A DNA stretch of 63,745 nt, filler included, from Folioceros fuciformis (Eukaryota): NCBI GenBank assembly GCA_049999805.1. It is 20 parts of 20 records of this genome, joined end to end, with 100 filler letters (N's around TTAATTAATTAA, not from the genome) between each part and the next. Parts side by side here need not be neighbours in the genome. Positions count along the whole stretch, not along the records: positions 52,247 to 57,796 come from JBNGIO010003172.1; 19 more parts are not named here. One strand, written 5' to 3'. Position numbers and translations under genes: made by a program. Of the stretch, positions 14,041 to 62,418 are shown piece after piece. The stretch's first letter is position 1. Every line of letters begins with the position of its first letter. The notes below the pieces were generated by a model. That model worked only from the letters and a program-made list of their open reading frames with translations, ran no database searches and was not told where the DNA came from.

Positions 14041-14062
14041 ATTTGTTGGCATCCTTGCCAAC

Positions 14063-21298: not shown

Positions 21299-21812
21299 GG
21301 ATGACCGTGAATTGCAGTGCAGTACTGGCAACAGCGCAGCCGAAGGTTGCAGCCTTCCACCACCTGTAGGCGAGCTTGGTTGGCACGGATTGCTCTCAAA
21401 AATTGAGANNNNNNNNNNNNNNNNNNNNNNNNNNNNNNNNNNNNNNNNNNNNTTAATTAATTAANNNNNNNNNNNNNNNNNNNNNNNNNNNNNNNNNNNN
21501 NNNNNNNNTGTCTTCCACGATCGCATCCACCCGATAGCACCGCGGGTCGTCATCGTGCCTCTCCTCCGCGTAGAGTCCTTGATACGCCCCCGAGGAGCTG
21601 TCGCCTGTTCCTCCGGAAGTGTAACCTGTTGTGGGCGGTTCAGTCTCCCCTCCGTAGGGCGCTCTTCTCCAGGAGACGAAAGCGGTCCCCTTGACCCCTG
21701 CTTGTCAAGTTGTAAAGGTGACGCCTCGCCTCCCGAAATCGAAGACACAAGCGGTGCCGTACAGCCATGGGCCTTCTGTGGAGTGATTTCTTGCACCCAA
21801 GAATCACCCAAG

Positions 21813-22105
21813 TGTAGGGTTATTAAAGCCCATTGTGCCTAGACTAATGTGTTTAGTCTAAGATTAGTGTCTAGTTAAGTATCATTAGTTTAGATTAGCT
21901 TAAGCTAATCTCTAGGAAGCTTCTTGTGCAGCTTCCTGTGGGCTTCTTGTGAAGCTTCCTAGGGAGCTCTTCTAGAGGGTATAAATACCCCCTTGAGCTC
22001 CCTTGTATGTGGACTCCATTGTGAGAGTGTGACCTCTCTTTCTCCTCTCCTCCTTGCCTCCTCCTCTCCTCTCCTTTACCATGTAGCTCCTAGAGCGTTC
22101 CTTCA
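21813..22105 (+). mobile_element. 5' LTR (293 bp)
   Basis: TGTAGGG...CTTCA, TATAAATA at 21980, followed by the PBS. Confidence 0.85.
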
Positions 22106-22107
22106 AG

Positions 22108-22125
22108 TGGTATCAGAGCCTGGTT
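22108..22125 (+). promoter_or_regulatory. Primer-binding site (initiator tRNA-Met)
   Basis: TGGTATCAGAGCCTGGTT, 2 nt after the LTR end. Confidence 0.92.
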
Positions 22126-25100
22126 GTGGAGCAGAAGGATGATGTCCCTGGTGCTGCGAGCAAAGTGGCTGAAAGAGAGACATTGGAGTGGCTGTATGCG
22201 ACATCCGGAGTGCAAGGGCCTCTACCCCGGAAAGGAAGCCAGGAGCGGGGCGACCTCCGAGCGGGGCGGCCCCTTGCCTGCTCGGCCGACCTCCTGACTC
22301 CCGGATCCGTCAGCCTCCAGCCTGCTCGCCAGGTCGACCAGCGCCTGGTTCAGCCAGCCCGATCTCAAGTGATCATCTCCTTGTAAATAGACTCCCTTGT
22401 TAACCAGCCATGCTGTCCTAGCTGGCTGAACTTGGCGCTGCCTTGCCTCCAGCTGCATCTAGCCAACCAGCCCCAGGTGCTCTGCCCCCATATCAGCTAG
22501 CCATCCTACTACATCCCGATCTGCCTCTGTAGCTGGCCAGCGGCCGCCTGGCCTGAACCTCACTTGCCCGCCAACACTGCAAGCACGGCCCGGATCAACC
22601 CGAGGCCTGCCTGGCTTGGATCCGACCTCGCCCCTGGCTTGCCACACTACCAGTCTGAACTCGGCCAGTCGCTAGCCCCAGCCGGCTACCCGGCCTTCGA
22701 ATCCAACCCTGGCCAGCCTGCTGGGTCCTCCAACCACCGGCCCTACCTGATCTATTGGTCGGCCACCGGCTTGGTTGCTGCCCACAGCCGGCCTTTGCAG
22801 GCCAACCGCTATCTGGCTGATCAGCCAGGCCGCCTGCCTGGCACCCATCCAGATCCATCCTAGCCAGTCGCTAGGCAGCTGCTTGAGTGCTTGCCAGCGG
22901 GCCAGGTCTGTCTGCCGCCGTTCCACCAGCCAGCTCGGCCAGCCCGACAAGCCGGCCTCCCAAATCAGCCAGCCGACCTACAGGCCGGCTACTCCTGTGT
23001 GCTCCAGGTTGCCTGGCTCCCGTCATGATCAGCCACAGCCATCCTTAACCACGCCACCAGGATTCGGCCCCGATCTGCTCCCGTCAACCCCGCTAGACGG
23101 TCAGCCAGGCTTTCCGGATCCGCCAACAACCCGCCTGCTCATCGACCAGCTAGCCGTCTGCCCGATCTCTGCTAGTCCTCGAGCTGTCTGCCTGGCTGCC
23201 TCCTCGCTCAGCTCGAGGCCTGCCTGGCTTGGGTCCAGCGCCGCCCCTGGCTTGGCATGCAGCCTGATCCGCTGGCTGGCCACTGATGGCTGGCTCAGCC
23301 TCTGCTGCCCGGCCCAAGTCCACCCCGGCCAGGTCCTGCAAGCCAGGCGGCTTGCCTGCTAGCAGCTCGACTTGGCCAGCCGCCATGGGCTCCTCCATCC
23401 CCAGAGGCCGCAAACCGGCCTCTTGCCTGCCGGAATCGCCAGCCTGCTCCCGAATCATGCAGCTACTGAGCCACCTGCCGGCCTCCCGATTCAGTCTCGG
23501 CTGCCTAGCAGTCGGGCGCTTGCCCAAGGGTCGCCTGCCCACCACGATCCAGGCCAGTCTGCCTGGCTGCTTGGGTTCCTGCAGCCAGTGACTGCCCGGC
23601 TTCCCCGGCCGCCTTGCTGCCTGATCGATCGTACCCGCCTCTTGGATCCGGCAGCCTTGCCTGGCTGCCTAATTGATCGTACCCGCCTCTTGGATCCGGC
23701 AGCCTTGCCTGGCTGCCTGGCCGGGTAGGGCTGCCTGATCCTCAACCAGTCACTACTAGGCCAGCAACTTGCCAGGATCCCTCCCCGGCCTAGACTTCCC
23801 CCAGCCGGCCGCCTACCAAAGGCCGCAAGCTAGCCTGCTCTCCTTCCGGATCCGGTCAGGTAGCCAACCTGCTCGGCCTGGCAGCTTGCTGGATCCGTCC
23901 GCCAAGAGCCAACCCCTCTACGCATCCCTTGATCCAGCCAGGGGGCCACCTGAGCCCGCTGGCTGGCTAGATCCGGCTGGGAAGTCAGCTGGACCTGGCA
24001 AGCCCCCCCTAGCCAACCTGCCCGTGTGCCTAGGCTTGCCTACTGGCTAGCACGACCTGGATCTGGCTAGGCAGCCAGCCCACAGGGCGGCCAGCTTCTC
24101 CCGCACCTGGTTAGGTAGCCGTCTTGCACTAGCCCGCTTGCCCGATTCCCCTGGCCACTGCCCGCTGGCCCAGGCCGACTAGCCAGAGGCCGCTAGCTGG
24201 CCTCCGGCCTCTAGATCTAGCCGGGCAGCCAGCCTGCTCGGCTTGGCTGCTTGCTGGATCCACCTGCCTAGGGACCAGGCTAGCCTGCCTGGCTACTTGG
24301 GCTCTTGCAGCCAGGCCGGTGCTTGGCTTCCGGATCCAATAGGTAGCTAGCCTGCCGATCGACACCCCCTCCGGCCAGGACTCCCCTGGCCAATCGGCCA
24401 CCCTAGGTGACTGCCCGGCTGCCTGGATCCGCCTGCAAGCTGCCCTTGCCGCTGGGGCGCCAACCAGCTCCTCAGCAGCCGCTGCCAAGCTACTTGGCGA
24501 CTGCCTGGATGCCTAGCCGAAATCGCCTGCTTCTGGCCTGCCCGCTAGTTGGCTGGCGATCCGGCCAGCGCCTGTCTGGCCCCGCCGCGACGAGTTGTCA
24601 TGACCCGGCCCCTGCCCAGCCAGCCTGCTGGTTGCTTGGTCTAGCTGCAACCAGCCCGGCTCCAGAATCGGGCAGGCAGCCGTCATCTGCCGTTGCTGGT
24701 TAGATCTCTCCATCGCCAGCCACCCCACCGCCCGGATTTCGGCCTACCCACCTGCTTGGCTAGCAAATCAGCCTGGTCTCCCGATCCAACCAGGGAGCCC
24801 GCCTGCTTGGCCTGGCTGCCTGCTGGGCTGCCTGGCTCCTACAGCCAGGCACTTCACCCCCGAGTCCTCCCAATCAGCTCCCCGCGCTGCAGCCATCAAC
24901 TGCCCTACTCAAGGCCACCTCGGCCAGCTCCTTGCCAACTAGGCGTCTTCCTGCTCTCAGCCCGACTTGACCAGACACCATGCCTGATCCACTCAGGCAG
25001 CCGGCTTGCTGGCCTACCTACCTTCGTCCTGGCCCACTCCTGTGGTCGGTCCGACTCCTAGTTCCCTGACCCTGTTGCCAGCCCGACCGGCCCTGGCTGC

Positions 25101-25630
25101 GGCTTGCATGCAGCTGGCCGACCTGGCTGCTGGTCAGGTTCCTCAGCAACCGGGGGGCCCCTGGCTTGCTTGTGCTACCCATTCAAATGGGCTAGGCTGG
25201 GCTGTCTAGCGTTCCGGCCAAACCCGCTTGGATCGCCTGCCGGGCGACCTGCCCCTTAGCACCCGCTGCCATCCATTACCGCTTGGATCAGCCCAAGGCC
25301 CGTCTGGCCTGGATCCAGCGCCACCTCGGGCTGCCTGCCTGACCACCTCTAGCTGCAGCCAACCAGCGGCCGCATGGCAATCCGGCCAAGCCCACCTACC
25401 AAGATCTACCCAACCAGCCGCCCGTTCTGCTCCCCCGTTACCTTACCCCGAGGAACCAGAGCCCTTGCCCTATCTACCACACAACCTATCTACTCTATCG
25501 ACTCACCATAAATCTAGCTACTATTCTAGCCTAATCTCCCAACCTTTCCTCTACAACACTCACTCACAGATCCAAAAAAAAAAGAAAACCTATCCTTTCC
25601 CAGGGGTCTGTTCAGCATGTGGAGTCCACA
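22125..25630. mobile_element. 3.5-kb GC-rich, internally repetitive non-coding element (LARD-type interior or giant LTR)
   Basis: No recognisable domain; dense CCAGC/GCTGG/GGATCC/CTAG motifs; bounded by TGTGGA...TCCACA. The right end interrupts a gypsy protease. Confidence 0.5.
23616..23718. repeat. 48-bp tandem repeat, ~2.1 units
   Basis: GCTGCCTRATYGATCGTACCCGCCTCTTGGATCCGGCAGCCTTGCCTG. Confidence 0.9.
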
Positions 25631-26304
25631 CCTTCCCAGGAGAACCTTATACCCCAAATCAGACACAAGTCCCATAACGATGTAGGTCAGATAGAAGGTG
25701 ACTCCTCCAATCACTGTGGGCACATCCCGAAGTACTCCCAAGGGTTTCCTCTTGGTTTGATTAGCCATGCGTAGATAAACTCGGGTCGGTGTGAACTCCA
25801 TAAAACCCAGACGATGTGCTGTTTCTTCAGTCATGAAGTTGACCCCAGACCCGGTATCCAGTGGTACCTCCGAGATTAGGCAGCCTGCCACCTCAATCTC
25901 GATTTCAGGTGCCCCGCGATCCACCAACTCCACCAGATTGACCTCTGCGAACGCGTTCTTCACAGTTAAGGGTTCCGGAATTCCGCGAATTGTCTCCTTC
26001 ACGATCTTGCGAGATCTTGGGCTAACTGCCAATAGTTGTCGCAGGCTAATCACGAACTCATGGTCGAGGAGGGCGTCTACGAAGTTTGCGATCTGGTCCG
26101 AGAGGGTTGGTCGCCTTAACCTGCCGTCGTCATTTCCTGGATCCCCATGCAACCTTGAAACCTCTTCCGAGTGAGCAGGGCTCGAAGGCTAGGCAAGTTC
26201 ACCTCTATTTGTCCCTTCGAGTAGTTCCCCGAAACTCACTCGCCGCGGCTGCTGTGTTAGCCGCCGTAACTCCTCCTCCAACATCGTCGCCATCTGCTGA
26301 GTCG

Positions 26305-26348
<44 letters not shown>

Positions 26349-27685
26349 GACTCAGCAGAAGCCCCCGTGCCCCTTGCCTCGGGCTCCCCAGGCGCTCCGG
26401 CGTCTTCCATTGGCGCGCTCTCACCCTCCCGCAGACTGCTACGACTCTTGGGTGGCCAAGGGGAATCTTCCCTGACCTTTCGCTTCTTCTTCTCCCCTTT
26501 TTCGCGACGCCTCTCCCGGTACTGCAGCTCCCACGCTCTTCTCCCAGAGCGCGTGGTGACTCTTGCCACGTCCAATCCTTCCCCATCACTGACCTCGCCA
26601 ACGTAGCCTTCTTCCACGATTCTCGAGTAGACATGGGTATCGTCCACCGTGTCAAACTCTGCCGCAACCTGCATAACAGGAGTGGAAGTCACGGTGATAG
26701 CCGTGTCGGTGTTCGCGAAAGATCCGTCTGCCGCAGAGTTAGAAGCTTTGTCCCCTGATCGAGATGGGACAACACGTGGGATGCCGGAACAGCGTGGATC
26801 ACCCGCTTTGTGGCCAAGTTCCTTGCACACTTGACAAAACGGAACGTACCCCATCTGCCGCCTTGGCTCGAGACATTCATGGGCATAATGACCAGGTGCA
26901 CCACAATTATAGTAGCACCCGGCTAGAGCTGACGTCGGTCGTTGAGATGAGTCAGGCCTCCAATGGCCTGGCGTAATCGGGCGCAGCCCATACTGCATGG
27001 TTGGGGGTGCCATCGGTTGATAGGTGGCTCTCATCGATTGGGGTGGACGGGCCGCTGTGACCGCCTACACTTGATAGGTCTCATCGACATACCAATAATC
27101 TCCAGGCACATATGCGCCCACCTGGTTGACCACATGTCTTGGTGCCTTGGGGCACTCACGGTTGGTGTGTCCTGCATGATGACATATGGAACAATACACC
27201 GACTACCTAGCCGGAGAGGGGGATCGTCGTGGAGCCTGATTTTTCACCGCCTTGACCTCCAACTCCGTCAACCGCCTGGTCAGGGCCTCCAACTGATCCG
27301 TGAGGACAACGCTGCCCGCGGAGGGACCTCCGCGCTCCATCCTATTAGAACTCTTGTTCTTGCTCTCCTTCTCGGCTGCTCTCTCAAAATCCTCCTGACG
27401 CTTCCTTTTTGCGCGTTCGAGATCCTTCCTCAACCGGCGTTGGTAAACGGGGTCGGACTCGTCGTCCATCGAGTTGCCTGAGATGGTGCTTCCCTTTTCC
27501 GTGTCTGACCTGGAAGAAGACATAGAGGGACGCGCTGGCGAAGAAGAACTGGAGTACCTCGCTTCCTTGACCTTCCTCCGCTCCTTCCTCTTCTTGCGCT
27601 TCCCATACTCAGCTAACTCATAATCTTCTGCCGCCTTCAGACATTCTTGCAGAGTGGTGGTCCCCAGCCGGCAGTGGGTGTCCAT
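25631..27685 (-). mobile_element. Ty3/gypsy gag (three knuckles, partly degenerate) + aspartic protease
   Basis: Homologous to 7868-9118; protease VPLDTGSGVNFM...VLLGR. Confidence 0.88.
26293..26359. other. Probable sequencing-adapter artefact (inverted TCTGCTGAGTCGA flanking A41)
   Basis: 13-bp perfect inverted repeat around a poly-A run. It matches, from memory, the start of the MGI stLFR adapter TCTGCTGAGTCGAGAAC.... Confidence 0.75.
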
Positions 27686-30169: not shown

Positions 30170-32447
30170 TCAGTCAGTTCGTGCCCTCATTCTCAGCAAA
30201 AGTTTCCAACACTTGTTTCCGTTGAGGTTGTTTGTATGCATGTGCCACTAATTGTCTCACCTTTTGTTGAGTTTGCTCCATAATGCAGGCTATCCCAAAA
30301 GCTAAATCTGAATGCTCAAATGCAATATCACATACTTCAGCACATGCCATTTTAATAAAATCCAACCGTTTTTCTTTTGCCATCTCCAATTCTATCTTAC
30401 ATTCTTGGTGCCAGCAAGGGGTTACTAGGCAACACAATGTGTGGAGCTTCTTGATCCTTCATCCAAAAAGCCATACCCAAGTTGTTGGTATCACTACTTT
30501 AAGCAACATACGCTCCATCTGTTCTTCCATTTTGCCTAGCTGCTGCTACACCATCTTTGTATATGCCAAGGAGTTGTTGAACTTTCACCACATGCTTGCA
30601 GATGAAACCCTAAACCCCATTAGACATGAACATGTAGCCCAAGGAGAGTAAACATGTTCAATCACATACCACAAGTTAAGGGTCGATGAAGACAAACAAT
30701 GTGCAGCAACATTTTTGGCATGCGGTAAAATAATTGAGCTAATAGGAATAGTTTCTGCACCCTTCATAGCGGTTTCCTCTAAAGCCTTGGGCTTCTTGGT
30801 ATGCCTGTATCCCCCTTCTTTCGTGAAGTGCTAGTACCAATAATGTCGGGCAACCACATTCACTAATTGGTGTAGTAACCAGTTTAGTCTACGGCTAGGC
30901 AAACTTGACTTGCTAAATGCTGCACGTTCTTTTATAAATCTATGGAATCCTTCCACAGCTGAAGTTGTATGTTGCCCTGCATGAGGCAACATTCTAGCAT
31001 TACACAACCACATATCTATAGTCTCTCCCCATTGGACCTTCATATATCTCACACAGTCTCCTTCACTTGTTCCCCACTTGTCACAAAAATTGTGTAGCAT
31101 ACTTCTTCTTATGGAAATACACTCTGAAGATGTGCTTGCCCCTGTGACATACATAATATCCCCTAGCTCTGCCCACATTGAAATTCGATTACTTTTTGAG
31201 TGCGATTTCTTCAATAAATTCCGTCTCCACGCTTTCCGCACATGCCACAAGCATAATAATATAGGCATATTATGATTCCACACTGACCGAATAGCGGAAA
31301 TCTCTGCCTGACATTCATCAACAAGGAATGAACTAGGTGTCCAATCCTTGTTGATCTTTTCAACCTTCTTCCGTAAAGCTGAAAGCCACCTGACAAGTGA
31401 CTCAGCAGTAGCATCTTTTGTAATAGCCCATGCTACTGGAACACCGTTCAAGTAATGGTCAAAAACCATCACAGTGAATAAGTGGTAGCGATACCTGTTC
31501 AACCCAAAAGTTGCATGCATAGCTAGCACATTACCATTCCCATAAAGCAACATGCAATATAACATCAAAGGAGTTTGAATACCCAAAGCGAAAGGTTGAT
31601 TCTCGCTTGATTGGTGGAAGACTATAGACGCATTTTGCTCCAACCACAGGGCCACTGATGTGGCATCATCTGGGGCTAGCTTCCATTCACCAACTTCAAC
31701 TTGTGTAAGTATATTGAGAACATCATATCTTTGCATATAATCATCTCTTACTAGCTCATATACCTGTGTCTGATTGTTGATTTGAGCATACAATGCATCT
31801 TGATGCTGACGCATTATTTCATCAATAGGAACTTTGCAATATAGGCAATGCCTAATCCAATCCTTCTTTTCTTGTGAAAGCCATGCTGCTCTGACATCAC
31901 GGGGTAAACCTTCGTACCCAGGCCCATGACATATAGCATTTGAAAGGTCAATATTCCTATGTTCAAAAAGACCAATCTCAGCAACCGTAGGCCACACAAG
32001 AAGTTTCTTCACCCTAAAATTTGCTTGGCAACCATGCTTCACACTCTCTCCGCGAAGGACCTTACACTTAGCTGTATTAGCACCACGTGACACTCCCACC
32101 TCTTTTTGACGAAAGTCTTCCGGGCCGTAAGAACACTAATACCTGCAAGCTAGCCTCATAATGTTAATGCCTCCCTAAGTAATAAAACAATTTGCATACT
32201 TCAAACCTTCTCACCTAACATATAATACAGCTGTATGCACTATCGATATTGCAGGGTGAGGTAAACTCCCCAGTCCCTTAGAATCCTTCTTGTAGAAGTT
32301 CGTAGGATGGGAACTTATAGCACTCATTCCCCCAATAAAGTCTCTCACTCTAGAAAAGAGTATGTGAGCCACCTTCACATGTTTTTGCTGCCCTGGTGCC
32401 TTAAATATGAGAAGGTTAAATAACCCTAATTTAGGAAGCTGCACCAC
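30170..32447 (-). pseudogene. MULE transposase-like / SWIM zinc-finger protein with intron 32143-32214
   Basis: Spliced RY[W]CSYGPEDFR, GCQANFRVK, CHGP, M[D>H]ATFG, GVPVAWAIT, FLVD, LCLWHVRKAW, T-SAVEGFH, and frameshifted SWIM CSC...CKH near 30595-30635. Stops at 32136 and 30831. Confidence 0.85.
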
Positions 32448-42440: not shown

Positions 42441-42491
42441 AACCCTTTTTCAACCAAAACAAACTACTACCCCAAACTTTGGAGGTTCACA
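42441..42491 (-). mobile_element. LTR terminus (TGTGAACCTCC family)
   Basis: Reverse complement of the sequence starting at 14553. Confidence 0.8.
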
Positions 42492-42493
42492 GG

Positions 42494-43974
42494 GATGTTG
42501 AAGAGCTGCAGCAGTAACACCCCCTTCCACGGGGTGGGGCAGAACTACGCAGTTAGAAGCCAAAACAGGGATCAAGTTTAAACACCGGACACAGCACTAG
42601 GCCTCCAAGTAGCCCGCCCTCCTCTTCTAGGAGGACTCGCAGCCAGCACCCTTGCTGCTGCTCTTTATTCAAATCACGAGTCAACAAGAACATACAGAGC
42701 TGGAGGACTAGAGAGAACTCTCCATCTTTGCCTAAGCTAGGAGTTTAGCTCTCCCTTCTCTTGGCCTCCTCCCACAGCTCCTTCACAGCACCTTTCATGT
42801 GCTCTCACAGCTCAAGCAACACATGCTCTCAAGGCATAGCCCCAAGCACCCAGTGCTCTCAAGGCTTTGAGGAGATACTCATCTCAACTCCACTGTACTG
42901 AACTTCCCTTAGCCCTTAGCTAGGTCCCCTTTTATACACAAGCTCAAGTCACTAACTTAGCAACTACTTACTTAAGCACTTACTTAAGCCTTAAGCTATT
43001 ATTCACTACCACACACTTTTTCCTAGGGCTGCATGCTTCTCATGCTCTCTTAGTAACCTGCTCTGCTAAACATGCCTTTGCATGGAGCTTACTTGCTTGG
43101 CACTCAAACCAACGTTGTTACTGCAGCCGCGAATTTCAATGGCTTTGCAACAGCTTGTGCTGGTTCTGGGTGGGAGTATTAGTCTGTCCCCATCGCCACC
43201 CTCCTCCCAAATGCACCTACCTCACCCACGCCGGCAACGCACCCGCCTTCCAACCTTTCCAGATGTGGTGCTTGGGGATTTCTTCGATGGACTACCACGG
43301 CCGGTGGAGAAGGAGGAAAGAAAGCGGTGGAGGCAGGTGCGGCAGAAGGTGTTGATTGCTGTTGGCAGATGTGCCTCCCTCAGCTGACTGAAATGGTTGC
43401 CTCTTGACATCTACGAGGAGGGGCGAGAAGATGAGGTGGAAGCCCTGTTCGGAGGTTTGAAATCGATTGCCAACTACTCGGCCTTAGAAACGTTGGATTT
43501 GGAAGGGCGCAGCGGTGTGGGGGGGAGTGAAGCTGGATGTGCTGCCCTGGTGGGCTTCCTCCGCTTCAATCCCAGCATCCGTCATTTGCTATTGGAGCGT
43601 ACAGGCCTGAAGCCAGACGGGCTGGGCCAGTTGGTGCGGGGGCTGGAAGTGAATCCCCACCGCCCTCTCCGCTCTCTGAATCTGTCAGAGAACGAGCTGG
43701 GAGCTGGTGAAGGCGATGCAGCAGGATGTGAGGGCGGGGCTTTGCAGGTAGCGAACCTGCTTCAGGCCACCGTGTGCCCCAACCTGCAAAAGCTGGACAT
43801 CAGGAATATCGGGTTGGATTTGGAAGGTGCAGACATGATAGGTCGGGCTTTGGCGAAGAACTCGTCGGTGCGGTCGTTGAAAGTGGGAGGGAAGAATGAC
43901 AAAGGGGTAGCGTTACTTCTTCGGACGGGACTGGCGAGGGAGAGGGAGAGGGAGATGGAGAGTTGCCCCACCCA
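42494..43974 (+). pseudogene. Ribonuclease-inhibitor-type LRR protein (TORNADO1-like N-terminus), interrupted
   Basis: LETLDL, LRSLNLSENELG, LQKLDIRNIGL, LAKNSSVRSL. Removing the solo LTR restores DVEELQPRISM... in frame. One TGA at 43385. Confidence 0.7.
42513..43122 (-). mobile_element. 610-bp solo LTR with AGT...ACT termini and 5-bp TSD GCAGC
   Basis: AGTAACA...TGTTACT inverted ends; GCAGC at 42508-42512 and 43123-43127; minus-strand TATAAAA near 42930 and AATAAA near 42665. Confidence 0.75.
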
Positions 43975-45232: not shown

Positions 45233-45539
45233 ACACTGACATACCCAGATACCCGTTCCTATGTTCAAACCATTATTTTTATTATTTAATATTATTATAT
45301 TATTTAATCATTAATATTATATATCTTTAATTAATATTAAACTAATCACCAGACCTAGACTAAACCAAACCAACTATTTCTTGGTCAATTAACCTAATTA
45401 GCACAAAGAAAAATAGGAAAAATGACCAGAAAATAAAGGAAAATTAAGGAAAATAAGTTGAAAAAGAAAACCAAACCATACCACTATTAACCCTTTTCCA
45501 ACCAAAACAAACTACTACCCCAAACTTTGGAGGTTCACA
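45233..45539 (-). mobile_element. LTR 5' part (TGTGAACCTCC family)
   Basis: About 200 bp are near-identical to the reverse complement of 14553-14730. Confidence 0.85.
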
Positions 45540-45633
45540 AGTGACAAGATTGCAAGTCTGGAAAGGACTGTCTGAGATGCAGTGTGGAGTCGCCAAGGGT
45601 GGAGGTCCCATTGTTGGAGGAACTTCTTTTTTT

Positions 45634-51510: not shown

Positions 51511-52246
51511 GTCCAAAACTTCCAGGTGTAATCAGTCATTGAAAAGAGCTCCAACTTGCACAAAAAGCATACCATTTGACTTGCTTGGTTGAGATAAAAA
51601 GTTTGGTACAAGAATCAATAGCAAATGACCTATAATGTGGCCGCTATGAATCTAGAAGGCTGGAAGCTCTAAACTTGTTGGGTCAGCATTGCAACTAGCT
51701 GCTACCAAGACGGGGAAGATGGCGCCATGATATAGGTGCGTAACTATGTTCTCTAAGCCCAGTCGCCCTCATATCTCATAGACAATCGTCGAAATGACAT
51801 GAAACCAGCTCACATGCAGTTTCATAGACATTGTAGCAATGTCACGATTGATGGGTTGCCATTGCTAGGCACCTTTGAGTCACATAAGTCACACCGGAGC
51901 TGCCAATGTACATAGAAAATCCACGAGCATTACAACATTCTTGCCCCAAAACAGGCTGGAAATTACAAACATCAAGCAAGTGAAACCCTTGGTGTGGGGT
52001 CAGGGTCAGGCACTCTCCCTCGGTGCAATTTCAACAACTATTTTTTGCGGCGCCCGTCCCAAGGTTTAGTGCTGGCCGCCATGGTTGATGACGGTGATAA
52101 TTTCAAGTATCAATGATAATTATATCACAGTTGGTCTCACACTCTTNNNNNNNNNNNNNNNNNNNNNNNNNNNNNNNNNNNNNNNNNNNNTTAATTAATT
52201 AANNNNNNNNNNNNNNNNNNNNNNNNNNNNNNNNNNNNNNNNNNNN

Positions 52247-55200
52247 TGGCCTCTTATACACGGTGGTGGTGGTCTTTCCGCTATAAAGTCTGTCAGGGGT
52301 CAGTTGGCGCTCTTAAATTCCAAGCGGCTCAGGTCCAAGTAAAAGCATTCCAAAAAGAACACTATCCTTGCCTGCAATTACTATCGCTTCTCTCCACGCT
52401 GCTGGTGCCTTCCCCCCGGTCTGCGTGCGCCTCCTCTCACTGGTCCCCCTCTTGCTCTCCTACCCCTCCGCTGATTGGGCAGATCTTCCCACATGATCTC
52501 TACGTCACTACTGCTGCTGGACCTTTCTAGCGGTGGCACAAGTGTGCCCTGCCGTTGAGAACCATTGTTCTTCCTCCTCCTCTGGTTACTGAGGATGGCA
52601 ACAGGCTCCCGTTCTACCCATCGTTGGGCCTCTTCTTCCGTCAGCTCCTCCAGGACTGCCTCTGCGTAGCAATGGGGCAGGCCTGTCATCCACCAACTGT
52701 AGCGGTAGAGACCCTTGCAAGTCCTCAGATGCAGGCCGTAGCCCCGCATCCCTCCTGTGCCCATACGTACATACAGAAATAGTTTAAGAACTTTGGCCCC
52801 TTCCACATAAAGACCTGGCATATAGGAAGCCTCCTCCTCATATTGCAGCACAACCCAACCTTCTGTCATAAAGGAGGTGCTTACCCCTTCCTCCCTTGGA
52901 CTACCGTGGGTTGTTTGCTCCCCATCTTTTTGGGGTACTTGAAGGTCCTTCATCCGTCCAGCTGTTGCTTCCTCCGGCTCTGTCCTTCTGGTGCGGATCA
53001 ATCTCCTGGAGCGCCTAAGCTCAGGCACCTTCGTTGTTTCTTCCTTGGTTCCTAGGGCTGGTCCCTCGGCTACTCTGGGCTTAGCCGGGCTACCGGTAGC
53101 CCTGGCTACTACTCGGCTACCGGTAGTCTGCTCGACTACCGGTTCCCCTGCTCGACTACTGGTAGCCCCTTTAACTACCGGTGTCGACGTTTGACTTGGG
53201 CGCCCAACCTTACCCTTCCCCTTCACTCTCTCTTTGGCTTCGTCTCGCTCCCGCTTGTACCTATCAGTCAGCTTCTGGGCCTGTTCCACAGCGGCTACCT
53301 CCAGCACCTGCGCCTTGGCCATCTCCTGTTGTATCTCCAGGTTAGTCTCATGGGCCTCCCTCACCTGAGCTAGTAGGATCCCCTGTTGCTCTCTTCACGC
53401 TTGGACCTCGGCCTTTGCCTGGCGTGCCTCTTCCTCAGCCTGTGCCCTCTCCTTATCTAGGACTTGCTGTCTCTCCTCCAACAGTTGCCGCGCCGACTCT
53501 GATTGTGCCAGTAGCCTCCAGGCTTCAGCCTCCTGCTGGCATGCCTCTGCTTCCTTCCCTCGGACCTCGGCTTCCCGTTCCGCCTGCACACTCAGCCAGG
53601 TCAGTGCCCTAGCAGCCTGGTCCAGGAGATCTGCTTGGGCCTGTACGATCGCGGCAATCAGCCCTGGCAGATCCACCTCCTGCTTTTCTCCAACAGTCAT
53701 TCCTCTCGCCGTAATCTGCTTGCCCAGAAACTCCCTCAGCTTCTCCAGGTCTCCCACTTGCAGCCTGTCCTTCTGAGGAATGCTCCTGAAGATTTCCTCC
53801 CATCCTGAAAAAGCTCCTTGCGCCGAAACGTGCCCTAATTTGCTCTCATGCCTGGGAGGAATTAACTCGGCGGCTAACGTCTGCTCCTGAGACTCCTCCA
53901 ACCCTACTTCATCCTGCCCCTGCTCCTCTAGTCCTTGATCCGTGACTCCCTGGTCAGCGAGCTCCTGTTCTACCTCCTGTTCCTGTACAGCCCGCTCCTC
54001 TGTTTGACCTTCGATTTACTCCAGGGCTGTCTCCGGTGTCTCCGGCCTACTCCCTCCTCTCGTGCTCTGCCCGCTGACCCATCTCCTCTTGGCAAGGGTC
54101 TTCCTTTGAGCTTATGTTCTCTTCTTAGGCTTGACGGGAACCTCCCCCTCCGAGCTGTCCCCACTCCCCGACACCCAACTGCTGGAGTCAGCCTTCACTG
54201 GCTCAGCAGGCTTCCATTTTCCATCCCTGATTGGCCTCCACATGTGCAGTGAAGCCAACACCTCCAGTTCCGACACCAGGTTAGCATAACTATAAATATG
54301 CACTAGAAACGGGGAAATCATCAAGGGCTGAGGAGAGGGCAGGGTCAGGTTCTGCCTCTCCTCGTCCATCCTGGCATACAGAATTTTTCCCCATCAATCC
54401 TAGTCCCCTTCACTACCTCATGCACAAACAGGAGCATCTGGTCAAACAGATAATCCCGTTTGCAAACTTGGAGAAAACTAAGAAAACCACCTGGCCAGAC
54501 CCATCAGCTGCGGGCTCGCCATGTCACAAACCAACCATCCGTTAGCCTCCTTCTTCGTGCCTGGTTTGAGCAGTCCTTCAGCGTCTCTTGTACCTCCCCG
54601 TTTCCTCAGGGACTCTAGCACCAGTCCTCCCTCTTCTCGCTGGTCACGGCCATACACCCTCCTCACTAGCTCCAGGTTCCACCCCTGCGGTCTGCCTCTG
54701 ATCCCCTTCTCACGGACAGGTTCGTTCAACCTCAGGGTGCACTCCCTGACCAACTGTGGCGCTGCATGGTTCCACTTCTGGGTCATGAAACCCATACCCA
54801 ATTCATCCACCAGCCCTCCTGCTCTGACCCTCCAGTGCTCCATGTCGGGCCACAGAAGTAGGTCGATTCGGGGAACAGGAGGTTCCCCCTCCTGCTCGGG
54901 TACTGTCACTCCAGGCAGTAGTTCAAGGCGCGACCTCATCCTACCAACCTCCTCCTCTTGCTCCGGCTTCTGCGGTCCCTCCTCTCTCTTGATGAGCACT
55001 CGCTGCTTGCCTCGGCCCGTCCTGTTGCCTCAGCGTCTGCTTCCTTTCCAGCCGCCTTCACGCTCCCGGGTTACTACCCTTCATGTTTCGAATACTAACT
55101 TAATTCCCCTCCAGACTGCCCTTTAGGGTTTTTATACTAGCCGTTTTCTTCTCTCACTACTACTAGTTGGACTACCACCAGTCGCCCTTTTCGCGACGGT

Positions 55201-55553
55201 CGCCCCGCTGGCCACCGTCGCCCAGTCACCTCAACCCAACCTTTTTCCTAAATCCACAACTAGCTAGCCCCCTTCCCTACTCATTTCTATTCCTTATTTT
55301 TCAAGGGGGGGGGGGCATATATAACCACCTAAGTGTCCCCGAACCACCAAGGCCCAAGGGCAACCTTACTCACTCACTTCCAAATCGTGGTCTTCGATAT
55401 CCCAAACACCCAAAGACCAAGGCCATTTTTGAGTATGAATCCCCCTATCTTATTCACATACTAAGCCGATTCGCTCGTTCCTTCACACAAAAAATCGCAG
55501 CCTGCTCATTCTGTCACTCAAAATGGGAGTGTCGAAAGTTTTTTTCCTCTACA
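52247..55553 (-). mobile_element. ORF-bearing giant LTR, copy 2 (5' or solo LTR, truncated by contig end)
   Basis: Starts TGTAGAGGAAAAAAAC at 55553, as copy 1 does, but abuts unrelated gag with no PPT. ORF pieces 54478-54999, 54112-54369, 53395-53901 and 52381-53364. Confidence 0.85.
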
Positions 55554-57796
55554 CCTAGTAATGTTGAAATCGTGAAGAGAATGTTTGACCTTGAAACCCT
55601 GGTATAGGAGATGCGTTCCCTGGCACCTACACTTAACGCGAAGGAGGACAAGGCACGTGCACCTTGCAAAAGTGTGGCAGCTCGAAACACACCACAGGAT
55701 ACTATGTGAAAGGAGCATGCATCAAGTGTGGGGAAATAGGCCACACCGACTGGACTTGCCCAAAGTTTCCGTTAGTAAAGTAGCCACCAAACGCCCGGGG
55801 CCTAGAGTTGTCTGGAGAGGAGACAGTGAGAGGAGTGTTCTCTGACTGCATTCCCACCCCTCGCATCTTCGTTGTTGCAGATGAGGATATGAAGATCAGG
55901 GATAAAGAGGAGGATGACAAGGAAGAGGAGGTGAGGAGGAAGTCCAAGCAGCAACAGTGGGAGGCAGATCCTGCAGGGCCTGAGGTGGTCATGAAAGATG
56001 CTGAGGATCCCTCTATTTCTGCCAAGCCTAAGCGAAGGAGGAAGAAAGGATCAGTGCTACCACCAATCGCCAAAGACACACCTAGGTATTCCCTGGTAGA
56101 CAACATCGCTGACAGGCCGGTGAAGATGACCTTCAGACAACTCTTTGGTATAGTTCCATCTGCACGAAGAGAAATGGCTGCTGCTTTAAGTACCCGAGAA
56201 GCAAAACCAAAAAGAAATAAAGCCAAGGCGGTGGGAGAGACAAAGGAAGAAGTTGTTGGGACTTCTGCAGTTTTGAAGATAGGAGATCGGAGTGCAAAAG
56301 GCGGGTGGCTGCAGAAACATGATCCTCCTTCTGTCAAGGCTTGGGTGAACGATCGGGAAGTCCACGACGTGATTGTGGATGGCAGAGCCTCAACAAACAT
56401 TCTGAATGATAAGTGGCTTGCCCGACTCAATTTGGAGGACGCGAAGCTTAGGCCTTGAAGGAAGGTATTCAAGAATGCTTCTAACGTCCCACTGCCTGTG
56501 AAAGGAATCATAGACGGAGAGAAAGTCGTAGTGGAAGGAGTAAAGGTATCCATGGGGTTCGTTGTGGTTGAGCTCCTTGAACATGCTTATGGGATCATCT
56601 TTGGTCTGCCCTGGTTGGAGCTAGTAAAGGGAAGTCATGATTGGGACACGGGTATCTTGGAGATTGGACCAACACGGAAGCGAATCTAGGTTCCATCTTA
56701 GAAGCCTGCAGAGGTGGAGATGAGCGACTCTACAACTACCAGTGATTCAGGGAGTACAGGAAGTGAAGGGAAGCAACGATATATGAGGAGGATGATTCTG
56801 AGCTCGACATGGACCAAGATTTGGAAGCATTCAGTTCCGCTGCAGAAGTGCTGTATGCTCTATCAATCAGGGTGGCGATGGATAAGGTAGAACCAGCATT
56901 CTCTGTGGCGTACCCAGCTACTCAAGAGCTCAAGTTTCCAACCCCTAATGTGAAGAAGAAGACAGCAAGGGTAGGGACCCAACTTCATGGTGAGGAGCTG
57001 AAACAATACCAAGCCTTGTTTTCCAAATTTCATGATGTCTTCATTACAGAGCACGCGGAGATGCCAGCCACCAACCTGGGGGAGTTTCGTATCAACATCC
57101 CTACTGACACGAAACCCAAAATGCAAAAGTTACGAAGGTTGTCCCCCAAACACATGCAGGAGGTGAAGGAAGAGGTAGAGCGGCTCTTAGAAGCTGGTTG
57201 CATCGAGCTTGTAGAAGAGCCAGAGTGGGTGTCCCCCATTGTGATTTCAATGAAGAAGAATAGGAAGATTCGGATGTGTGTGGACTTTGGAGAACTGAAC
57301 AAGGCAACAGTGAAGGACAAGTATCCTCTGCCTTTCACTGACAAGATCCTGGACAAGGTGGCAGGACATGAAATGTACTCCTTTTGTGATGGTTACAATG
57401 GGTTCCACCAAGCCGCGATTGCCAAGGAAGATCAACCCAAGGTTGCGTTTGTTACTCCATGGGGGGTATTCATGTATAAGGCAATGCCATTTGGCCTCTG
57501 TAATGCCCCATCAGTCTTTCAGAGGTTTATGGTTGAAGCATTGCAGACCACCATAGGGAAGTGTCTTAGAGTTTTCCTTGACGACTTTACTGTCTACGGG
57601 AAACGGGCTGAACATCTTGCCCACCTGGAGCTGGTCTTCATTTGCCTTCAAAAAGCAAGACTAGGTCTTAAACCCACAGAAGTGTGTGTTTGGCGTCAAG
57701 GGTGGTGAACTCTTGGGCTTTATGGTCGACAACACTGGGGTTAAGGCTGATCCAAAGAAAGTTGAAAAGATCATGAGGAGACCTCCACCAGCTTCA
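55554..57796 (+). mobile_element. Ty3/gypsy gag end, protease and RT
   Basis: Knuckle CIKCGEIGHTDWTC (~55720-55760), IVDGRASTNIL...IFGLPWL, WVSPIV, RMCVDF, MPFGLCNAP, FLDD. Confidence 0.93.
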
Positions 57797-59437: not shown

Positions 59438-59627
59438 ATTGGTGTTGAGTTGTGTGATTGAATGCCAGAGAGCTTGATAATGTTGGGTACGTTGCTCCTG
59501 TGCTGTAGCTCTTGCTTGTGCCTCACCNNNNNNNNNNNNNNNNNNNNNNNNNNNNNNNNNNNNNNNNNNNNTTAATTAATTAANNNNNNNNNNNNNNNNN
59601 NNNNNNNNNNNNNNNNNNNNNNNNNNN

Positions 59628-62418
59628 TGGTCAGGGAGTGCGCCCTGAGGCTGATAGAGCCTGTACGCGAGGAGGGGATCAGAGGCAGACCAGGAATGGA
59701 ACCTGGAGTTGATCAGGAGGGTCTACGGGCAGGACCAACAGGAGGAAGGGGGACTAGTGCTGGAGTCCCTAAAAAGGTGTGGCGGAACGGGAGCGACAGA
59801 AACACTGCTCAAGGCAGGCACGAGAAAGGAAGCCAACGGGTGGCTGGTGCACGACATGGCAAGTCCCCAGCTGTTGGGATTGGCCAGGTGGTTCCTAAGC
59901 TTCTTCCAGGTATGCAAACAGGATTATCTGTCCGATCAGATGCTCTTGTTTGTGCATGAAGTAGTGAAGGGCACCAGGATCGACTGGGGAAGGATTTTAT
60001 ACACCCGGATGGATGAGGAGAGGCAGAACCTGCTCCGACCCACCCCTAAACCTTTTATGATTTCCCCGTTTCTAATCCACGTGTACAATCATGCTAACCT
60101 GGTCACTGAGCTAGAAAGGTTGGCCTCGCTGCACCTGTGGAAGCCAGTTCGTGATGTAAAGTGGAAGCCCGCTGAGCCAGCAAGGGCTGCCTCCAGCAGT
60201 TGGGAAGCTGAAAGTGGGAATAGCTCGCAGGAGGAAACCCCAGTCAAGCCCAAGAAGAGGGTGGCCCCACAAAAGGAGGCTCCTGCCAGGAGGAAAAGGA
60301 TCAGAGGACAAAGTGTGAACATGGGGGCTGATCAGGAGGAAGGGGGTACAGCCCTGGAGCAGACAGGTCAGCAGGAGGCAGAACGAGAACCAATTGTCCA
60401 GGGAATCAAGAACCAAAGGTTGGAGTAGCAAGGTCAAGGTGGGACAAGACCCGAGGAGCCACCGGATCAGGTGATGGCAGCTGACACAATTTCCTCCAGA
60501 CAGGAGGATAAGTTAAGGCACGCTTCAGCACAGGAGGGTTCCTCAAGGTGGAAGGACATTTTCAAGTGCAGGCCTCAGAGAGACAGGTTGCAGGTGGGGG
60601 ACTTGGAAAAGTTGCGAGAATTCCTGGGCAGACAAATCACAGAGAGAGGAATGGGCACCGGAGGGGTGCAGGAGGTGGACCTACTCGGGGTGACTGTTGC
60701 GATGGTACAGGCCCAAGCAGACCTCATGGATCAGGCTGCTAGGGCCCTGACCTAGTTAGGTGTACAAGCGGAGCGAGAGGCCGAGGCTTGGGGAAAGGAG
60801 GAGAAGGCTCGTGAGCGAGAGGCTGAAGCAAGGAAGCAACTGGCGGAGTCAAAGATGGCGCGGCAACTGCTGGAGGAGAAGCAGCGGGTCCTGGACAGGG
60901 AGAAGGCTCAAGCTGAGGAAGAGGCGCACGAGGCGAGGGCTGAAGTACAGGCGCTGAAAGAGCAAGAGGGGACCCTGCTAGCTCAGGTGAGGGAGGCTCA
61001 CGAGACTAACCTGGAGATGCAACAGGAAATGGCTAGGGCACAGAAGATGGAGATAGCCGCTATGGAGCAGGCTCAGAAGTTGGCTGATAGATACAAGAGG
61101 GAGCGAGATGAGGCCAGAGAGAGAGTGAAGGGGAAGAGCAAGGCTGGGCGACGGAGTCAGTCGGTGCTCCCGATAGCAGAAGGGGCTACCGGTAGCCGAA
61201 CTAGGGGAACTGTAGTTGAGGGGACTACCGGTAGTCCGGTAGTCCACGGGACTACCAATAGTTGGGTAGCCGATGGGGCTACTGGTGGCCCAGCAAGGCC
61301 CAGGGATAGGGGAAGAACCAACCCTGGAAACGAAGGAGGAAGCAGTAGGGGAACCTGCCCCTAGGCGCTCCAGGAGGGTGACCCGTACCAGGAGGATAGA
61401 GTTGGAGGAGGCAACAGCTGTGCAGGCAGAGAACCTTCAGGTACCCCAGCAAGAGGGGGAGCAGGCAACCCGAGGTAGCCCAAGGGAGGACGGGGTAAGC
61501 ACCTCTGTTATGATAGAAGGTCGGATTGTGCTGCAGTATGAGGAGGCCTCATGTGCCAGGCCTGTATGTAGAAGAGGCTAAAGTTCTGAAGCTGTTTCTG
61601 TATGTACATATGGGCACAGGAGGGACGCGGGGCTATGTCCTACAACTGAGGACGCGCCAGGGACTCTACCACTTCAGATGGTGGGTGACAGGACTGCCCC
61701 ATTGCTATGCGGAGGCAGTTCTGGAGGAACTGACGGAAGAGGAGGCCCAGCACTAGGTAGAACGGGGGCCTGTGGCTGTCTTCAGCAACTAGAGAAGGAG
61801 GAGGGGTGGTGGACCATAGCGGCGGGACCCACCTGCGCCGCCGGCCAGGTCCAGCAGCAGCAGCAGTGATGTGGAGATCCTCTGGGAGGATCTGCCGGAC
61901 CAACGGAGGGGCAGAAGAGCGAGAGGAGGAACAGCAAGGGGCGACACGCGAAGGCCAGGAGGAAGCCGCCAGCGGCGTGGAAAACGGCGACAGTAAATGC
62001 AGGCTAGAATAGGTTTTTTTTAGCGTGCTTTATTTGGACCCAAGTCGCTCAGGATTTAAGAGCGCAGCTCCCCTGCCTGACAGACTTTATGGGGGAAAAA
62101 CCGCCATCACCATGTACAAGAGGCCGGTTTGGAGGCCTAAGGAATCAATAAGCACCAGCCGAACAGTCGACCTTGCAGGGACCTAGCGATGGCTGTTGCT
62201 GGACAGGAGGTCCAGGCAAGCGAGCGCACGTAGCAACCAGGGGTGCGGGTGTAGGTGGTGGGCGCTCCGTGATCAGATCCGGGGACGAATTGGGAGGAGG
62301 AGCCTCGCCGAGTGGGAGAGAAGCTCCCTAGCTATCCTCGAGGTGGTCACGTGGGGTGGTGTGGGTGTTGGAGCCGAATCCGTGAGTGCGGAGTGGAAGG
62401 GACTCCTCTTCCCTTAGC
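59628..62418 (+). mobile_element. ORF-bearing giant LTR, copy 3 (internal part)
   Basis: ORF pieces 59709-60428, 60471-60755, 60855-61364 and 61526-61756, plus downstream non-coding sequence, all collinear with copies 1 and 2. Confidence 0.85.

Follow-up and report, generated by a model that had tools for sequence, protein, structure and literature searches.

Plant Ty3/gypsy retrotransposons can carry extra open reading frames (ORFs). The available part of one survey (PMC6317226) reports a 5′ extra ORF, eORF-5′F, in Tekay (33% of elements), TatII (23%), and Ogre (21%), and the plant-transposon helical domains (PMD, Transposase_28/32, Athila ORF-1) in the extra ORFs of Ogre (57%), Retand (23%), and Athila (16%). 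In Retrosat2, ORF0 lies upstream of gag-pol and has a Ka of 0.26 and a Ks of 1.65, as given in the excerpted text of PMC3485330. Many plant gypsy elements bear extra ORFs, and none of these is known to have an established function. MMTV sag and primate lentivirus nef are accessory genes located in or overlapping the U3 of the retroviral long terminal repeat (LTR). Both belong to vertebrate retroviruses and are expressed from spliced subgenomic mRNAs.

The window analysed here, a 63,745-nt stretch of Folioceros fuciformis DNA (GCA_049999805.1), consists of 20 contigs separated by N44-TTAATTAATTAA-N44 spacers. Three related copies, A, B, and C, share 71–80% DNA identity (Table 1) and are not neighbours, because the window joins separate contigs by spacers. 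Each terminates at contig ends or nested insertions. With sensitive blastn, neither the 5′ region nor the tail turned up in another copy in the window. With slightly better than even confidence, the copies are read as carrying a gene for an accessory protein that belongs to a family of Ty3/gypsy-type LTR retrotransposons in a plant-like genome, in a position that leans towards the inside of the LTR. It is an orphan accessory gene, and extra ORFs of plant gypsy elements are already a known kind.

As described in the accessible parts of PMC6317226, PMC3485330, and PMC6431247, Ogre ORF1, Retrosat2/RIRE3/RIRE8 ORF0, and Tekay/TatII eORF-5′F resemble this gene in being long sense-strand 5′ ORFs ahead of gag-pol. 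In those texts the likeness extends to being lineage-specific, mostly without known domains, and tied to very long LTRs, and to evolving under purifying selection, yet faster than pol. The Ka/Ks of Retrosat2 ORF0, computed from the means in the excerpt of PMC3485330, is ~0.16, compared with ~0.2 here. The available text of PMC6317226 defines an eORF as at least 250 codons long, separate from gag-pol, recurrent in copies of a family, and placed in the internal region between the LTRs; here, ~790 codons are shared by 3/3 copies without gag/pol domains. The 5′ extra ORFs in the accessible descriptions sit between the 5′ LTR/primer binding site (PBS) and gag, whereas no PBS is seen before this ORF. 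Also unlike them, the copy A ORF is directly behind integrase, a polypurine tract, and TG, and may be inside the LTR. Unlike Ogre extra ORFs, 57% of which contain PMD in the available part of PMC6317226, it gave no PMD match, and no sequence similarity to any of these 5′ extra ORFs was detected.

Table 1. Coordinates of the three copies and their features, counted along the whole window.
Feature	Position	Strand	Remark
Copy A	10215–14027 (approximate start)	minus	
Copy A, polypurine tract GAGAAGGGGAG	14030–14040		
Copy A, TGTAG terminus	14027		
Copy A, ORF remnants	~10962 to 13489		
Copy A, conserved 3′ tail	reaches at least 10533		
Copy A, candidate LTR end CTACA	10215–10219		
Copy B	52247–55553	minus	Site of the feature first marked, 52381–55084
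Copy B, element 5′ terminus (TGTAGAGGAAAAAAAC)	55538–55553	minus	Directly adjoins the plus-strand zinc knuckle in a different gypsy element's gag
Copy B, 5′ non-coding region	54940–55537	minus	
Copy B, TATA-like box	55316–55323		
Copy B, GGGCGAC subrepeats	55181–55223		Three of 18 bp
Copy B, second TATAAAA	55130–55136		
Copy B, N-terminal conserved domain	54195–54939	minus	Predicted helical (low confidence)
Copy B, N-domain frameshifts	near 54486; near 54394		+1; −1
Copy B, Ser-rich/basic linker with KPKKR, then acidic Q/E-rich stretch	53823–54194	minus	
Copy B, linker in-frame stops	54112–54114; 54016–54018		
Copy B, middle block and E/A/Q-rich heptad-like helical region	53208–53822	minus	Putative coiled coil
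Copy B, middle/helical region in-frame stop	53395–53397		
Copy B, ATGS repeat region and RRSRR basic patch	52905–53207	minus	Tandem DNA repeat, ACCGGTAG core
Copy B, C-terminal conserved domain	52584–52904	minus	Predicted beta strands and one helix (low confidence)
Copy B, Arg/Gly-rich basic tail (RRGRRARGG...) with stop codon	52381–52583	minus	Stop codon 52381–52383
Copy B, conserved 3′ non-coding tail	52247–52380	minus	Start only (contig end)
Copy B, tail TATA-like GTGTATAAGAGGCC	52248–52261		
Element beside copy B, CX2CX4HX4C knuckle	within 55556–55801	plus	Followed by protease-like sequence
Element beside copy B, RVT_1	56767–57708	plus	
Copy C	59628–62418	plus	Contig ends cut both sides
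Copy C, ORF	59628 to stop 61994–61996	plus	
Copy C, conserved 3′ tail	61997–62418	plus	

For reading the frame, alignment columns present in at least two of the three copies were kept. A single frame common to A, B, and C is open for ~790 codons, as the earlier note had expected, and the remaining two frames are full of stops. All three copies are broken, with several ORF pieces each. In-frame stops number 10, 3, and 5 in A, B, and C (18 in total) and frameshifting indels 6, 2, and 3 (11 in total), every one private to a single copy. The copies descend from intact genes of ~850–880 codons; after insertion each decayed independently, and all three in the window are now dead. In copy B the frame is open from 55029 and its first in-frame ATG is at 54939. 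The first ~95 codons (from 55029; ~63 from the ATG) are present in copy B only, the N-terminal ~290 bp of copy A being deleted and the N-terminus of copy C lost at the contig end. Of the feature first marked in copy B, the terminal stop codon is correct, and the ATG at 55084 belongs to another frame that closes after 8 codons.

The copies diverged deeply, at a dS of ~0.9–1.3, with the protein under purifying selection. Their p-distances are 0.37–0.44 at third codon positions versus 0.18–0.28 at positions 1 and 2. Whole-ORF dN/dS is 0.197–0.210 by NG86 (bootstrap 95% CI 0.15–0.26), 0.31–0.36 by YN00, and 0.14–0.24 by ML, whereas two wrong frames used as controls give 0.93–1.09 (NG86) and 1.3–2.6 (YN00, ML). 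The earlier impression that many DNA differences are silent is upheld by the third-position excess and by this frame-specific dN/dS. The whole-gene value is not near 1, and a per-domain comparison, proposed at the same time, shows that the domains differ. The N-domain is the most constrained part, at 0.06–0.10 (NG86) and 0.06–0.15 (YN00/ML). NG86 values are 0.27–0.40 for the linker, 0.08–0.16 for the middle block and coiled-coil region, and 0.20–0.32 for the Arg/Gly-rich tail. The ATGS repeat region is least constrained (0.44–0.68 by NG86, up to 1.03 by YN00/ML). The C-domain gives 0.16–0.23 (NG86) and 0.23–0.56 (YN00/ML), and this span of 0.16–0.56 reflects absolute omega values that are method-dependent because dS is near saturation. 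Each terminal branch has an omega of ~0.19–0.22, from three-point values calculated by hand from NG86 distances. Random changes create a stop in 4.4–4.7% of cases; using this figure to subtract neutral decay via the stop counts, we infer an active-phase omega of ~0.07–0.14.

Copy A shows the gypsy-type succession of integrase C-terminus, polypurine tract, and TG-starting LTR, in the order GKLHLRWMGP...NGWRVKKYYV (integrase C-terminus), stop, 33 nt, GAGAAGGGGAG, TA, TGTAG. The TGTAG boundary is a true element terminus, because in copy B the same boundary cuts a foreign gag mid-gene, and the gene starts ~0.6 kb inside it. A TATA-like box common to A and B is located ~230 bp from the terminus, upstream of the gene. 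A–B identity is 0.90 around this box and ~0.4–0.5 beyond the subrepeats. A reading that places the ORF after pol and ahead of the true 3′ LTR was rejected, since the boundary interrupts the other element's gag in copy B. A reading of B and C as LTRs of the gag-pol at 55784–57708 was also rejected, because copies on different contigs and in opposite orientation cannot be paired LTRs. The earlier description of the protein as LTR-encoded is plausible: the gene lies within 0.6 kb of a true terminus, although B and C are not a flanking pair.

Past the stop codon, A and C have at least 470 bp of conserved non-coding DNA in which every one of the three frames is closed and no protease is present. 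Its JC distance is 0.20–0.27 versus a dS of 0.87–1.27, a conservation ~four- to fivefold above that of synonymous sites. In copy A, the G/T-rich tail stops at CTACA, a 5-bp inverted match to TGTAG, where the GC skew shifts and an unrelated protein-like fragment starts. A 5′-truncated gag fragment (7868–9247) is found on the same strand ~1 kb past the tail.

Candidate LTR ends are ~305 bp or 3813 bp from the terminus. We lean slightly, on a roughly even balance, towards a long LTR (TGTAG...CTACA, ~3.8 kb in copy A) that contains the entire gene. A more detailed version, to which we give just under an even chance, has a gene cassette of ~2.6 kb, with its own TATA-like box and a T-rich stretch past the stop, placed in the ~3.8-kb LTR ahead of the core promoter. 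The integrase–polypurine tract–TG adjacency of copy A would then require no special arrangement. The inverted CTACA in copy A coincides with the end of the tail and the change in GC skew, and the strongly conserved tail has a TATA-like box; both favour this position. If it is correct, the gene is like MMTV sag and nef in being a non-core protein gene carried and duplicated with the terminal repeat. Unlike them, it has an apparent upstream TATA-like box of its own, would fill most of the ~3.8-kb repeat, of which it is a putative member, and bears no sequence relation to either. No precedent for protein-coding ORFs inside plant LTRs was found; the surveys, as represented in the available part of PMC6317226, covered internal regions only.

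The gene could instead belong to the internal region as a 5′ extra ORF, behind a ~305-bp LTR (copy A 14027–13723, ...GGGGCA) and a PBS and followed by gag-pol, which would liken it to Ogre ORF1, Retrosat2/RIRE3/RIRE8 ORF0, and Tekay/TatII eORF-5′F. We regard this as a substantial possibility, though below an even chance. Such ORFs are frequent in Tekay, TatII, and Ogre according to the accessible part of PMC6317226, and the Ka and Ks of Retrosat2 ORF0 in the excerpt of PMC3485330 are near those here. At 13722 in copy A, TGG comes immediately after CA; a 17-nt block that A and B share without a difference begins there, and A–B identity falls past ~350 bp. The same-strand gag fragment beyond the copy A tail fits an ORF-then-gag order and argues against the in-LTR position; it is, however, 5′-truncated, and an unrelated fragment lies between it and the tail. 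The CA/TGG junction ahead of the gene is seen in copy A only, having been lost in copy B, and overlaps a 3 × 18-bp subrepeat of which the conserved block is the first unit. An LTR ending there would leave merely ~45 nt for R plus U5, given the copy A TATA box at 13800–13807. Integrase, polypurine tract, LTR, PBS, and ORF on one molecule would also require copy A to have arisen as a tandem element or by recombination, or else to have been joined in the assembly through a shared LTR. No second LTR, PBS, or target-site duplication was seen for A, B, or C in the window contigs. The 12-nt initiator-tRNA-Met PBS motif is absent from the contigs of the three copies and was found on other contigs only, and no tRNA genes were detected in the window. 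A literature string search with the candidate PBS block gave unrelated matches only, among the matches listed.

The two placements differ in what they would mean. Inside the LTR, the gene would be present as two copies in each element, pass through every reverse transcription together with the LTR, and be kept on solo LTRs, thousands of which in such a genome could each bear a protein-coding unit. Surveys restricted to between-LTR regions would miss such a class, which would be a plant counterpart of retroviral U3 accessory genes, undescribed for plant retrotransposons as far as we found. Behind a short LTR, it would be one more ordinary orphan 5′ extra ORF.

Pfam-A scans matched 0/17 ORF pieces at E ≤ 0.01 and 0/6 window pieces at E ≤ 10. 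PMD (pfam10536) and Transposase_28 (pfam04195), as well as Athila ORF-1 (pfam03078), gave no match in these scans, nor did Transposase_32 in the whole Pfam-A scans, of which it is presumably part as a Pfam-A model. The resemblance to these families proposed in the earlier note was thus not recovered. When 1.84 billion representative proteins were searched exhaustively, the sole match was P0001 (27–28% identity), a predicted protein of 244 aa from a public collection of read assemblies. It aligns over 123 N-domain residues at 27% identity and shares the EEGG, NG(W/Y)L, and DWGR motifs. P0001 stops soon after the domain, without the coiled coil or C-domain. It is the only member of its unnamed cluster, which has no Pfam family; the Pfam-A scan at E ≤ 10 gave P0001 just one irrelevant match (E = 0.12). 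This match suggests that the N-domain may exist outside this retrotransposon family. Word-indexed searches of 5.8 billion proteins found no match to the N-piece among longer proteins, only the member P0001 itself for the profile of alignment A1, and no match for the C-terminal 198 residues. Of the two domain profiles searched against PDB sequences, one gave a single match at E = 1.1 and the other none, and no relative was found. Language-model searches with the N-domain returned unnamed streptophyte clusters (0.92–0.89) and a DUF1985 cluster (0.88), which are leads only; the atlas search with the C-domain gave no usable match. AlphaFold2 models reached a mean pLDDT of 39.7 for the N-domain (7-row alignment) and 44.8 for the C-domain (5-row), too poor for fold comparison. 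Foldseek on these low-pLDDT models found nothing at E < 1, and N-domain matches in PDB only at E > 7; we set these outcomes aside.

It is unlikely that the N-domain belongs, as a very remote relative, among the helical domains of plant transposons (PMD, Transposase_28/32, Athila ORF-1). Like them, it sits in a plant gypsy element's extra ORF and is a largely helical (predicted) module. Such domains are the most frequent ones in extra ORFs of non-chromovirus gypsy elements in the available part of PMC6317226, and the language-model leads point the same way. Unlike them, it matches no profile at the thresholds tried, including E ≤ 10 for the six window pieces; P0001 has only its irrelevant Pfam match, and no PDB relative was found.

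Slightly less likely still, the protein would be the family's own Gag-like structural protein, with a capsid-like N-domain and an Arg/Gly tail replacing zinc knuckles. No other long ORF separates it from the 5′ terminus, its N-domain is predicted to be helical with low confidence, and it has the basic stretches RRSRR and RRGRRARGG. However, none of the 17 pieces has a Retrotrans_gag or zinc-knuckle match, the closed frames past the stop hold no protease, and ~850–880 codons with a long coiled coil and repeats have no counterpart among the plant gypsy Gag proteins we know of. A non-functional origin, in which a repeat happened to hold an open frame or a host fragment was captured and drifted neutrally, is very improbable: every window copy is broken and no homologue of known function was found, but this view is contradicted by the frame-specific omega (0.14–0.36 versus at least 0.93 in control frames) and the private lesions, and conservation varies by domain.

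Persistence of the gene across sublineages (dS ~1) indicates that it matters to the element, and a role in element propagation would explain its retention in all diverged sublineages. From composition and motifs, we infer a possible mode of action. Transcription would start from a promoter near the element 5′ end, with the gene as the first long ORF on the RNA. The protein may enter the nucleus via the basic KPKKR/RRKR patches, multimerise via the ~160-residue heptad-like helical region, and bind nucleic acid or chromatin via the RRSRR patch and Arg/Gly-rich tail. Its specific function would be carried by the helical N-domain and beta-rich C-domain as the two most constrained modules. It could serve the element's own propagation, for example in RNA handling or countering host silencing; the nuclear anti-silencing or targeting function put forward earlier is a guess. 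The strongly constrained N-domain and coiled coil, set against a nearly neutral repeat region, offer a clean experimental target.

The remaining architecture first described is present in the alignment of the copies, including the N-terminal motif string, E/A/Q helical stretch, ATGS repeats, and C-terminal block. The KPKKR patch occurs in B and C, and copy A carries a different basic patch. In a crude heptad scan of our own, based on proline/glycine-free heptad windows, residues 37–130 (94 residues) of the copy C piece 60756–61364 fall in heptad-like windows, compared with shuffled sequences that averaged 11.7 residues and reached at most 78. Copy B gives a weaker signal than copy C. A two-chain complex prediction for the coiled-coil piece scored 0.17 against a mark of 0.32, which speaks neither for nor against self-association. 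The ATGS tandem repeat has a 39-nt period in copy A (3.8 units) and a 20-nt period in copy B (2.9 units).

The gene is present in three decayed copies, A, B and C, which share 71–80% DNA identity and are each broken into several ORF pieces. The copies were aligned as DNA, and only columns filled in two or more copies were read. All copies have one frame that stays open for ~790 codons until a shared stop region, and the other two frames of the same columns are full of stops; the consensus thus forms a single reading frame. Copies A, B and C contain 10, 3 and 5 in-frame stops and 6, 2 and 3 frameshifting indels, and none of these 29 lesions is common to more than one copy. Each copy therefore derives from an intact gene and decayed separately. 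In copy B the frame is open from 55029, with ~63 further upstream codons from the first in-frame ATG at 54939. The ATG at 55084, the start implied earlier, lies in another frame that closes after 8 codons. A deletion has removed the N-terminal stretch corresponding to these upstream codons from copy A. An AT-rich insertion, bounded by a 6-bp direct duplication (CGTTCT), breaks the C-terminal part of the ORF in copy A only; it resembles a small non-autonomous transposon, with no obvious terminal inverted repeat.

Whole-gene dN/dS (Nei-Gojobori) was 0.197 for A–B, 0.208 for A–C and 0.210 for B–C (bootstrap 95% CI 0.15–0.26), with dS of 0.87–1.27; in the two remaining frames these columns gave 0.93–1.09. 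YN00 gave 0.31–0.36 and pairwise maximum likelihood 0.14–0.24, with control frames at 1.3–2.6. The purifying selection proposed in the earlier note is therefore upheld across methods (0.14–0.36 versus 0.93–2.6 in control frames). The p-distances are 0.19–0.28, 0.18–0.24 and 0.37–0.44 at codon positions 1, 2 and 3. By domain, dN/dS is lowest in the N-domain and highest in the ATGS and basic region; small-segment values are method-dependent, YN00 reaching 0.56 for the C-domain and 1.03 for the ATGS region. Terminal-branch omega is ~0.2 each (three-point branch lengths, hand-calculated from the Nei-Gojobori values). A random point change in these codons yields a stop in 4.4–4.7% of cases, and stop counts imply ~0.10 (A), 0.03 (B) and 0.05 (C) neutral substitutions per site since inactivation. 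After subtraction of this decay, omega while the gene was alive would have been ~0.07–0.14.

The N-terminal motif string described earlier lies in the conserved N-domain. The KPKKR patch reported with it was found in copies B and C, and A has a different basic patch; the copy C linker also contains RRKR. In a crude ad hoc scan, heptad-like windows cover 94 residues in copy C versus a shuffle mean of 12 and maximum of 78, and the signal is weaker in copy B. A tandem DNA repeat underlies the ATGS repeats, and its copy number varies, with 3.8 units of 39 nt in A and 2.9 units of 20 nt in B.

Pfam-A matched none of 17 ORF pieces at E ≤ 0.01 and none of six window pieces at E ≤ 10, leaving the suggested likeness to PMD, Athila ORF-1 and Transposase_28/32 unsupported at sequence-profile level. 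The 256-residue N-piece of copy C was searched exhaustively with HMMER against 1.84 billion representative proteins and matched only P0001 (E = 5.9e-5), a nameless singleton of 244 aa with 27% identity over 123 residues and the EEGG, NG(W/Y)L and DWGR motifs in common. No further relatives were found by word-indexed search of 5.8 billion proteins or by PDB sequence search. In a language-model atlas, the N-domain was nearest to unnamed streptophyte clusters (0.92–0.89) and a DUF1985 cluster (0.88), which are leads only, and nothing was returned for the C-domain. The AlphaFold2 model of the N-domain has eight helices, and that of the C-domain has six strands and a single helix. Mean pLDDT is just 39.7 for the former and 44.8 for the latter, so the Foldseek outcome with these models (no match below E = 1) carries no weight. 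As it stands, the gene is a nearly orphan new addition to a known class, the extra ORFs of plant gypsy retrotransposons.

On the minus strand of copy A, a gypsy-type integrase C-terminus (...NGWRVKKYYV) ends at a stop; 33 nt further on come the polypurine tract GAGAAGGGGAG, TA and TGTAGAGGAAAAAAAC, in that order. The 16-nt start recurs in copy B, where it adjoins a plus-strand CX2CX4HX4C zinc knuckle; protease-like sequence and then an RVT_1 reverse transcriptase lie downstream of the knuckle. Copy B's element therefore landed in the gag of a different element. Given this insertion and the copy A junction, TGTAG is a true element terminus, of LTR-start type. The gene starts ~0.6 kb inside it, with an upstream TATA-like box in the best-conserved 5′ stretch (A–B identity 0.90). 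The gene belongs to the element, near its 5′ end, and selection kept it through deep sublineage divergence. An env-position ORF between pol and a real 3′ LTR is ruled out by this terminus, with the gene inside it. Upstream of the ORF, both A and B retain three GGGCGAC subrepeats with 17–18 bp spacing, a possible regulatory array; the first two units in copy B can pair as an 8-bp hairpin stem.

Past the stop codon, a non-coding tail of at least 470 bp is conserved far above synonymous sites (JC 0.20–0.27 versus the dS above) and contains the TATA-like GTGTATAAGAGGCC. In copy A, CTACA at 10215–10219 is a 5-bp inverted match to TGTAG; here the G/T-rich tail stops, GC skew shifts and an unrelated, AT-richer protein-like fragment starts. 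This fragment (~255 codons, one internal stop) matches no Pfam family at E ≤ 1.

The chance that the whole gene lies within an LTR, 3,813 bp long in copy A given the candidate end CTACA, comes close to even. The copy A adjacency is then a normal pol–polypurine tract–3′ LTR junction, and the conserved tail with GTGTATAAGAGGCC would look like a core promoter with R and U5. A serious competitor, somewhat short of even, is a short LTR of ~0.3 kb with the gene as a 5′ extra ORF between primer binding site and gag. Such ORFs are well known: according to the PMC6317226 supplementary table, 21–33% of Ogre, TatII and Tekay elements carry them, and for Retrosat2 ORF0 PMC3485330 gives Ka 0.26 and Ks 1.65. 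Our literature search listed no earlier case of a protein gene within a plant LTR, and the available sections of the review PMC7264820 mention none. A 5′-truncated gag also lies on the same strand ~1 kb beyond the copy A tail. However, a short LTR would mean that copy A is a tandem or recombinant element, or was misjoined during assembly. The sole CA|TGG ahead of the gene is a feature of copy A that copy B lacks; it overlaps the three 18-bp GGGCGAC subrepeats and would leave only ~45 nt for R plus U5. No primer binding site was confirmed for either LTR length. The gene would be of greater interest if full-length elements carry it inside the LTR.

The 63,745-nt window consists of 20 contigs separated by 19 identical spacers, N44-TTAATTAATTAA-N44, which place stops in all six frames. 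Because separate contigs were joined, order and orientation across spacers are uninformative, and the inverted B/C pair around gag-pol is meaningless. The label "LTR-encoded" is plausible but unproven, and its original basis was an artefact of concatenation.

Judged from sequence, the gene would be transcribed from the 5′-proximal promoter, and its protein may enter the nucleus via the basic patches, multimerise via the coiled coil and bind nucleic acid or chromatin via the RRSRR patch and Arg/Gly tail. The two constrained domains would carry the specific activity, and the protein may serve the element's propagation, e.g., RNA handling or silencing escape; any one such function is at best a doubtful guess. 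A Gag-like structural protein is a weaker, improbable alternative.

Features of the gene and surrounding contigs (codons are positions in the shared frame; dN/dS by NG86)
Feature	Position	Strand	Remark
Copy A contig	7868-14890	-	
Copy B contig	52247-57796	-	the finding
Copy C contig	59628-62418	+	cut at both ends
N-domain, conserved	codons 0-185		dN/dS 0.06-0.10
Ser-rich basic linker, then acidic Q/E-rich stretch	codons 185-300		dN/dS 0.27-0.40 (linker)
Short conserved block	codons 300-345		
E/A/Q/R-rich putative coiled coil	codons 345-505		few Pro/Gly, heptad-like periodicity; dN/dS 0.08-0.16
ATGS repeats, then RRSRR	codons 505-615		dN/dS 0.44-0.68
C-domain, conserved	codons 615-722		dN/dS 0.16-0.23
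Arg/Gly-rich basic tail	codons 722-790		dN/dS 0.20-0.32
Conserved non-coding tail	10533-11003 (A), 61953-62418 (C), 52247-52394 (B)		76-83% identity
GGGCGAC subrepeats	55181-55223 (B), 13672-13713 (A)	-	
Insertion in copy A	11189-11427		239 bp
Protein-like fragment	9486-10256	-	directly past copy A tail
Gag fragment, contig A	7868-9247	-	66% DNA identity to gag-protease at 26189-27064, 25526-26188
Gag, other contig	26778-27435	-	
Cupin_1 (germin-like) gene	20624-21460	-	E = 1.5e-46
MULE transposase	30831-32135	-	E = 3.8e-13
Primer-binding-site motif	15578-15589	-	exact match
Primer-binding-site motif	22108-22119	+	exact match
GC-rich region	22000-26000		62-64% GC
Shared stretches	14547-14729 vs 45363-45545 and 42441-42494		90-98% identical
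Shared stretch	14790-14890 vs 21815-21869		90-98% identical
Spacer examples	7768-7867, 52147-52246, 59528-59627		

The remaining contigs hold copia and gypsy fragments, a MULE transposase and a cupin gene, which fits a transposon-rich, plant-like genome. The 5′-truncated gag fragment carries several zinc knuckles as well as an Arg/Ser-rich stretch. Exact matches to the 12-nt primer-binding-site motif of initiator tRNA-Met occur twice and mark where LTR meets internal region in two other retrotransposons; the unusually GC-rich region downstream of the second contains ORFs without Pfam match. Short stretches of the integrase region of contig A recur on other contigs, two of them at contig ends; these are probably repeat-induced assembly break points.
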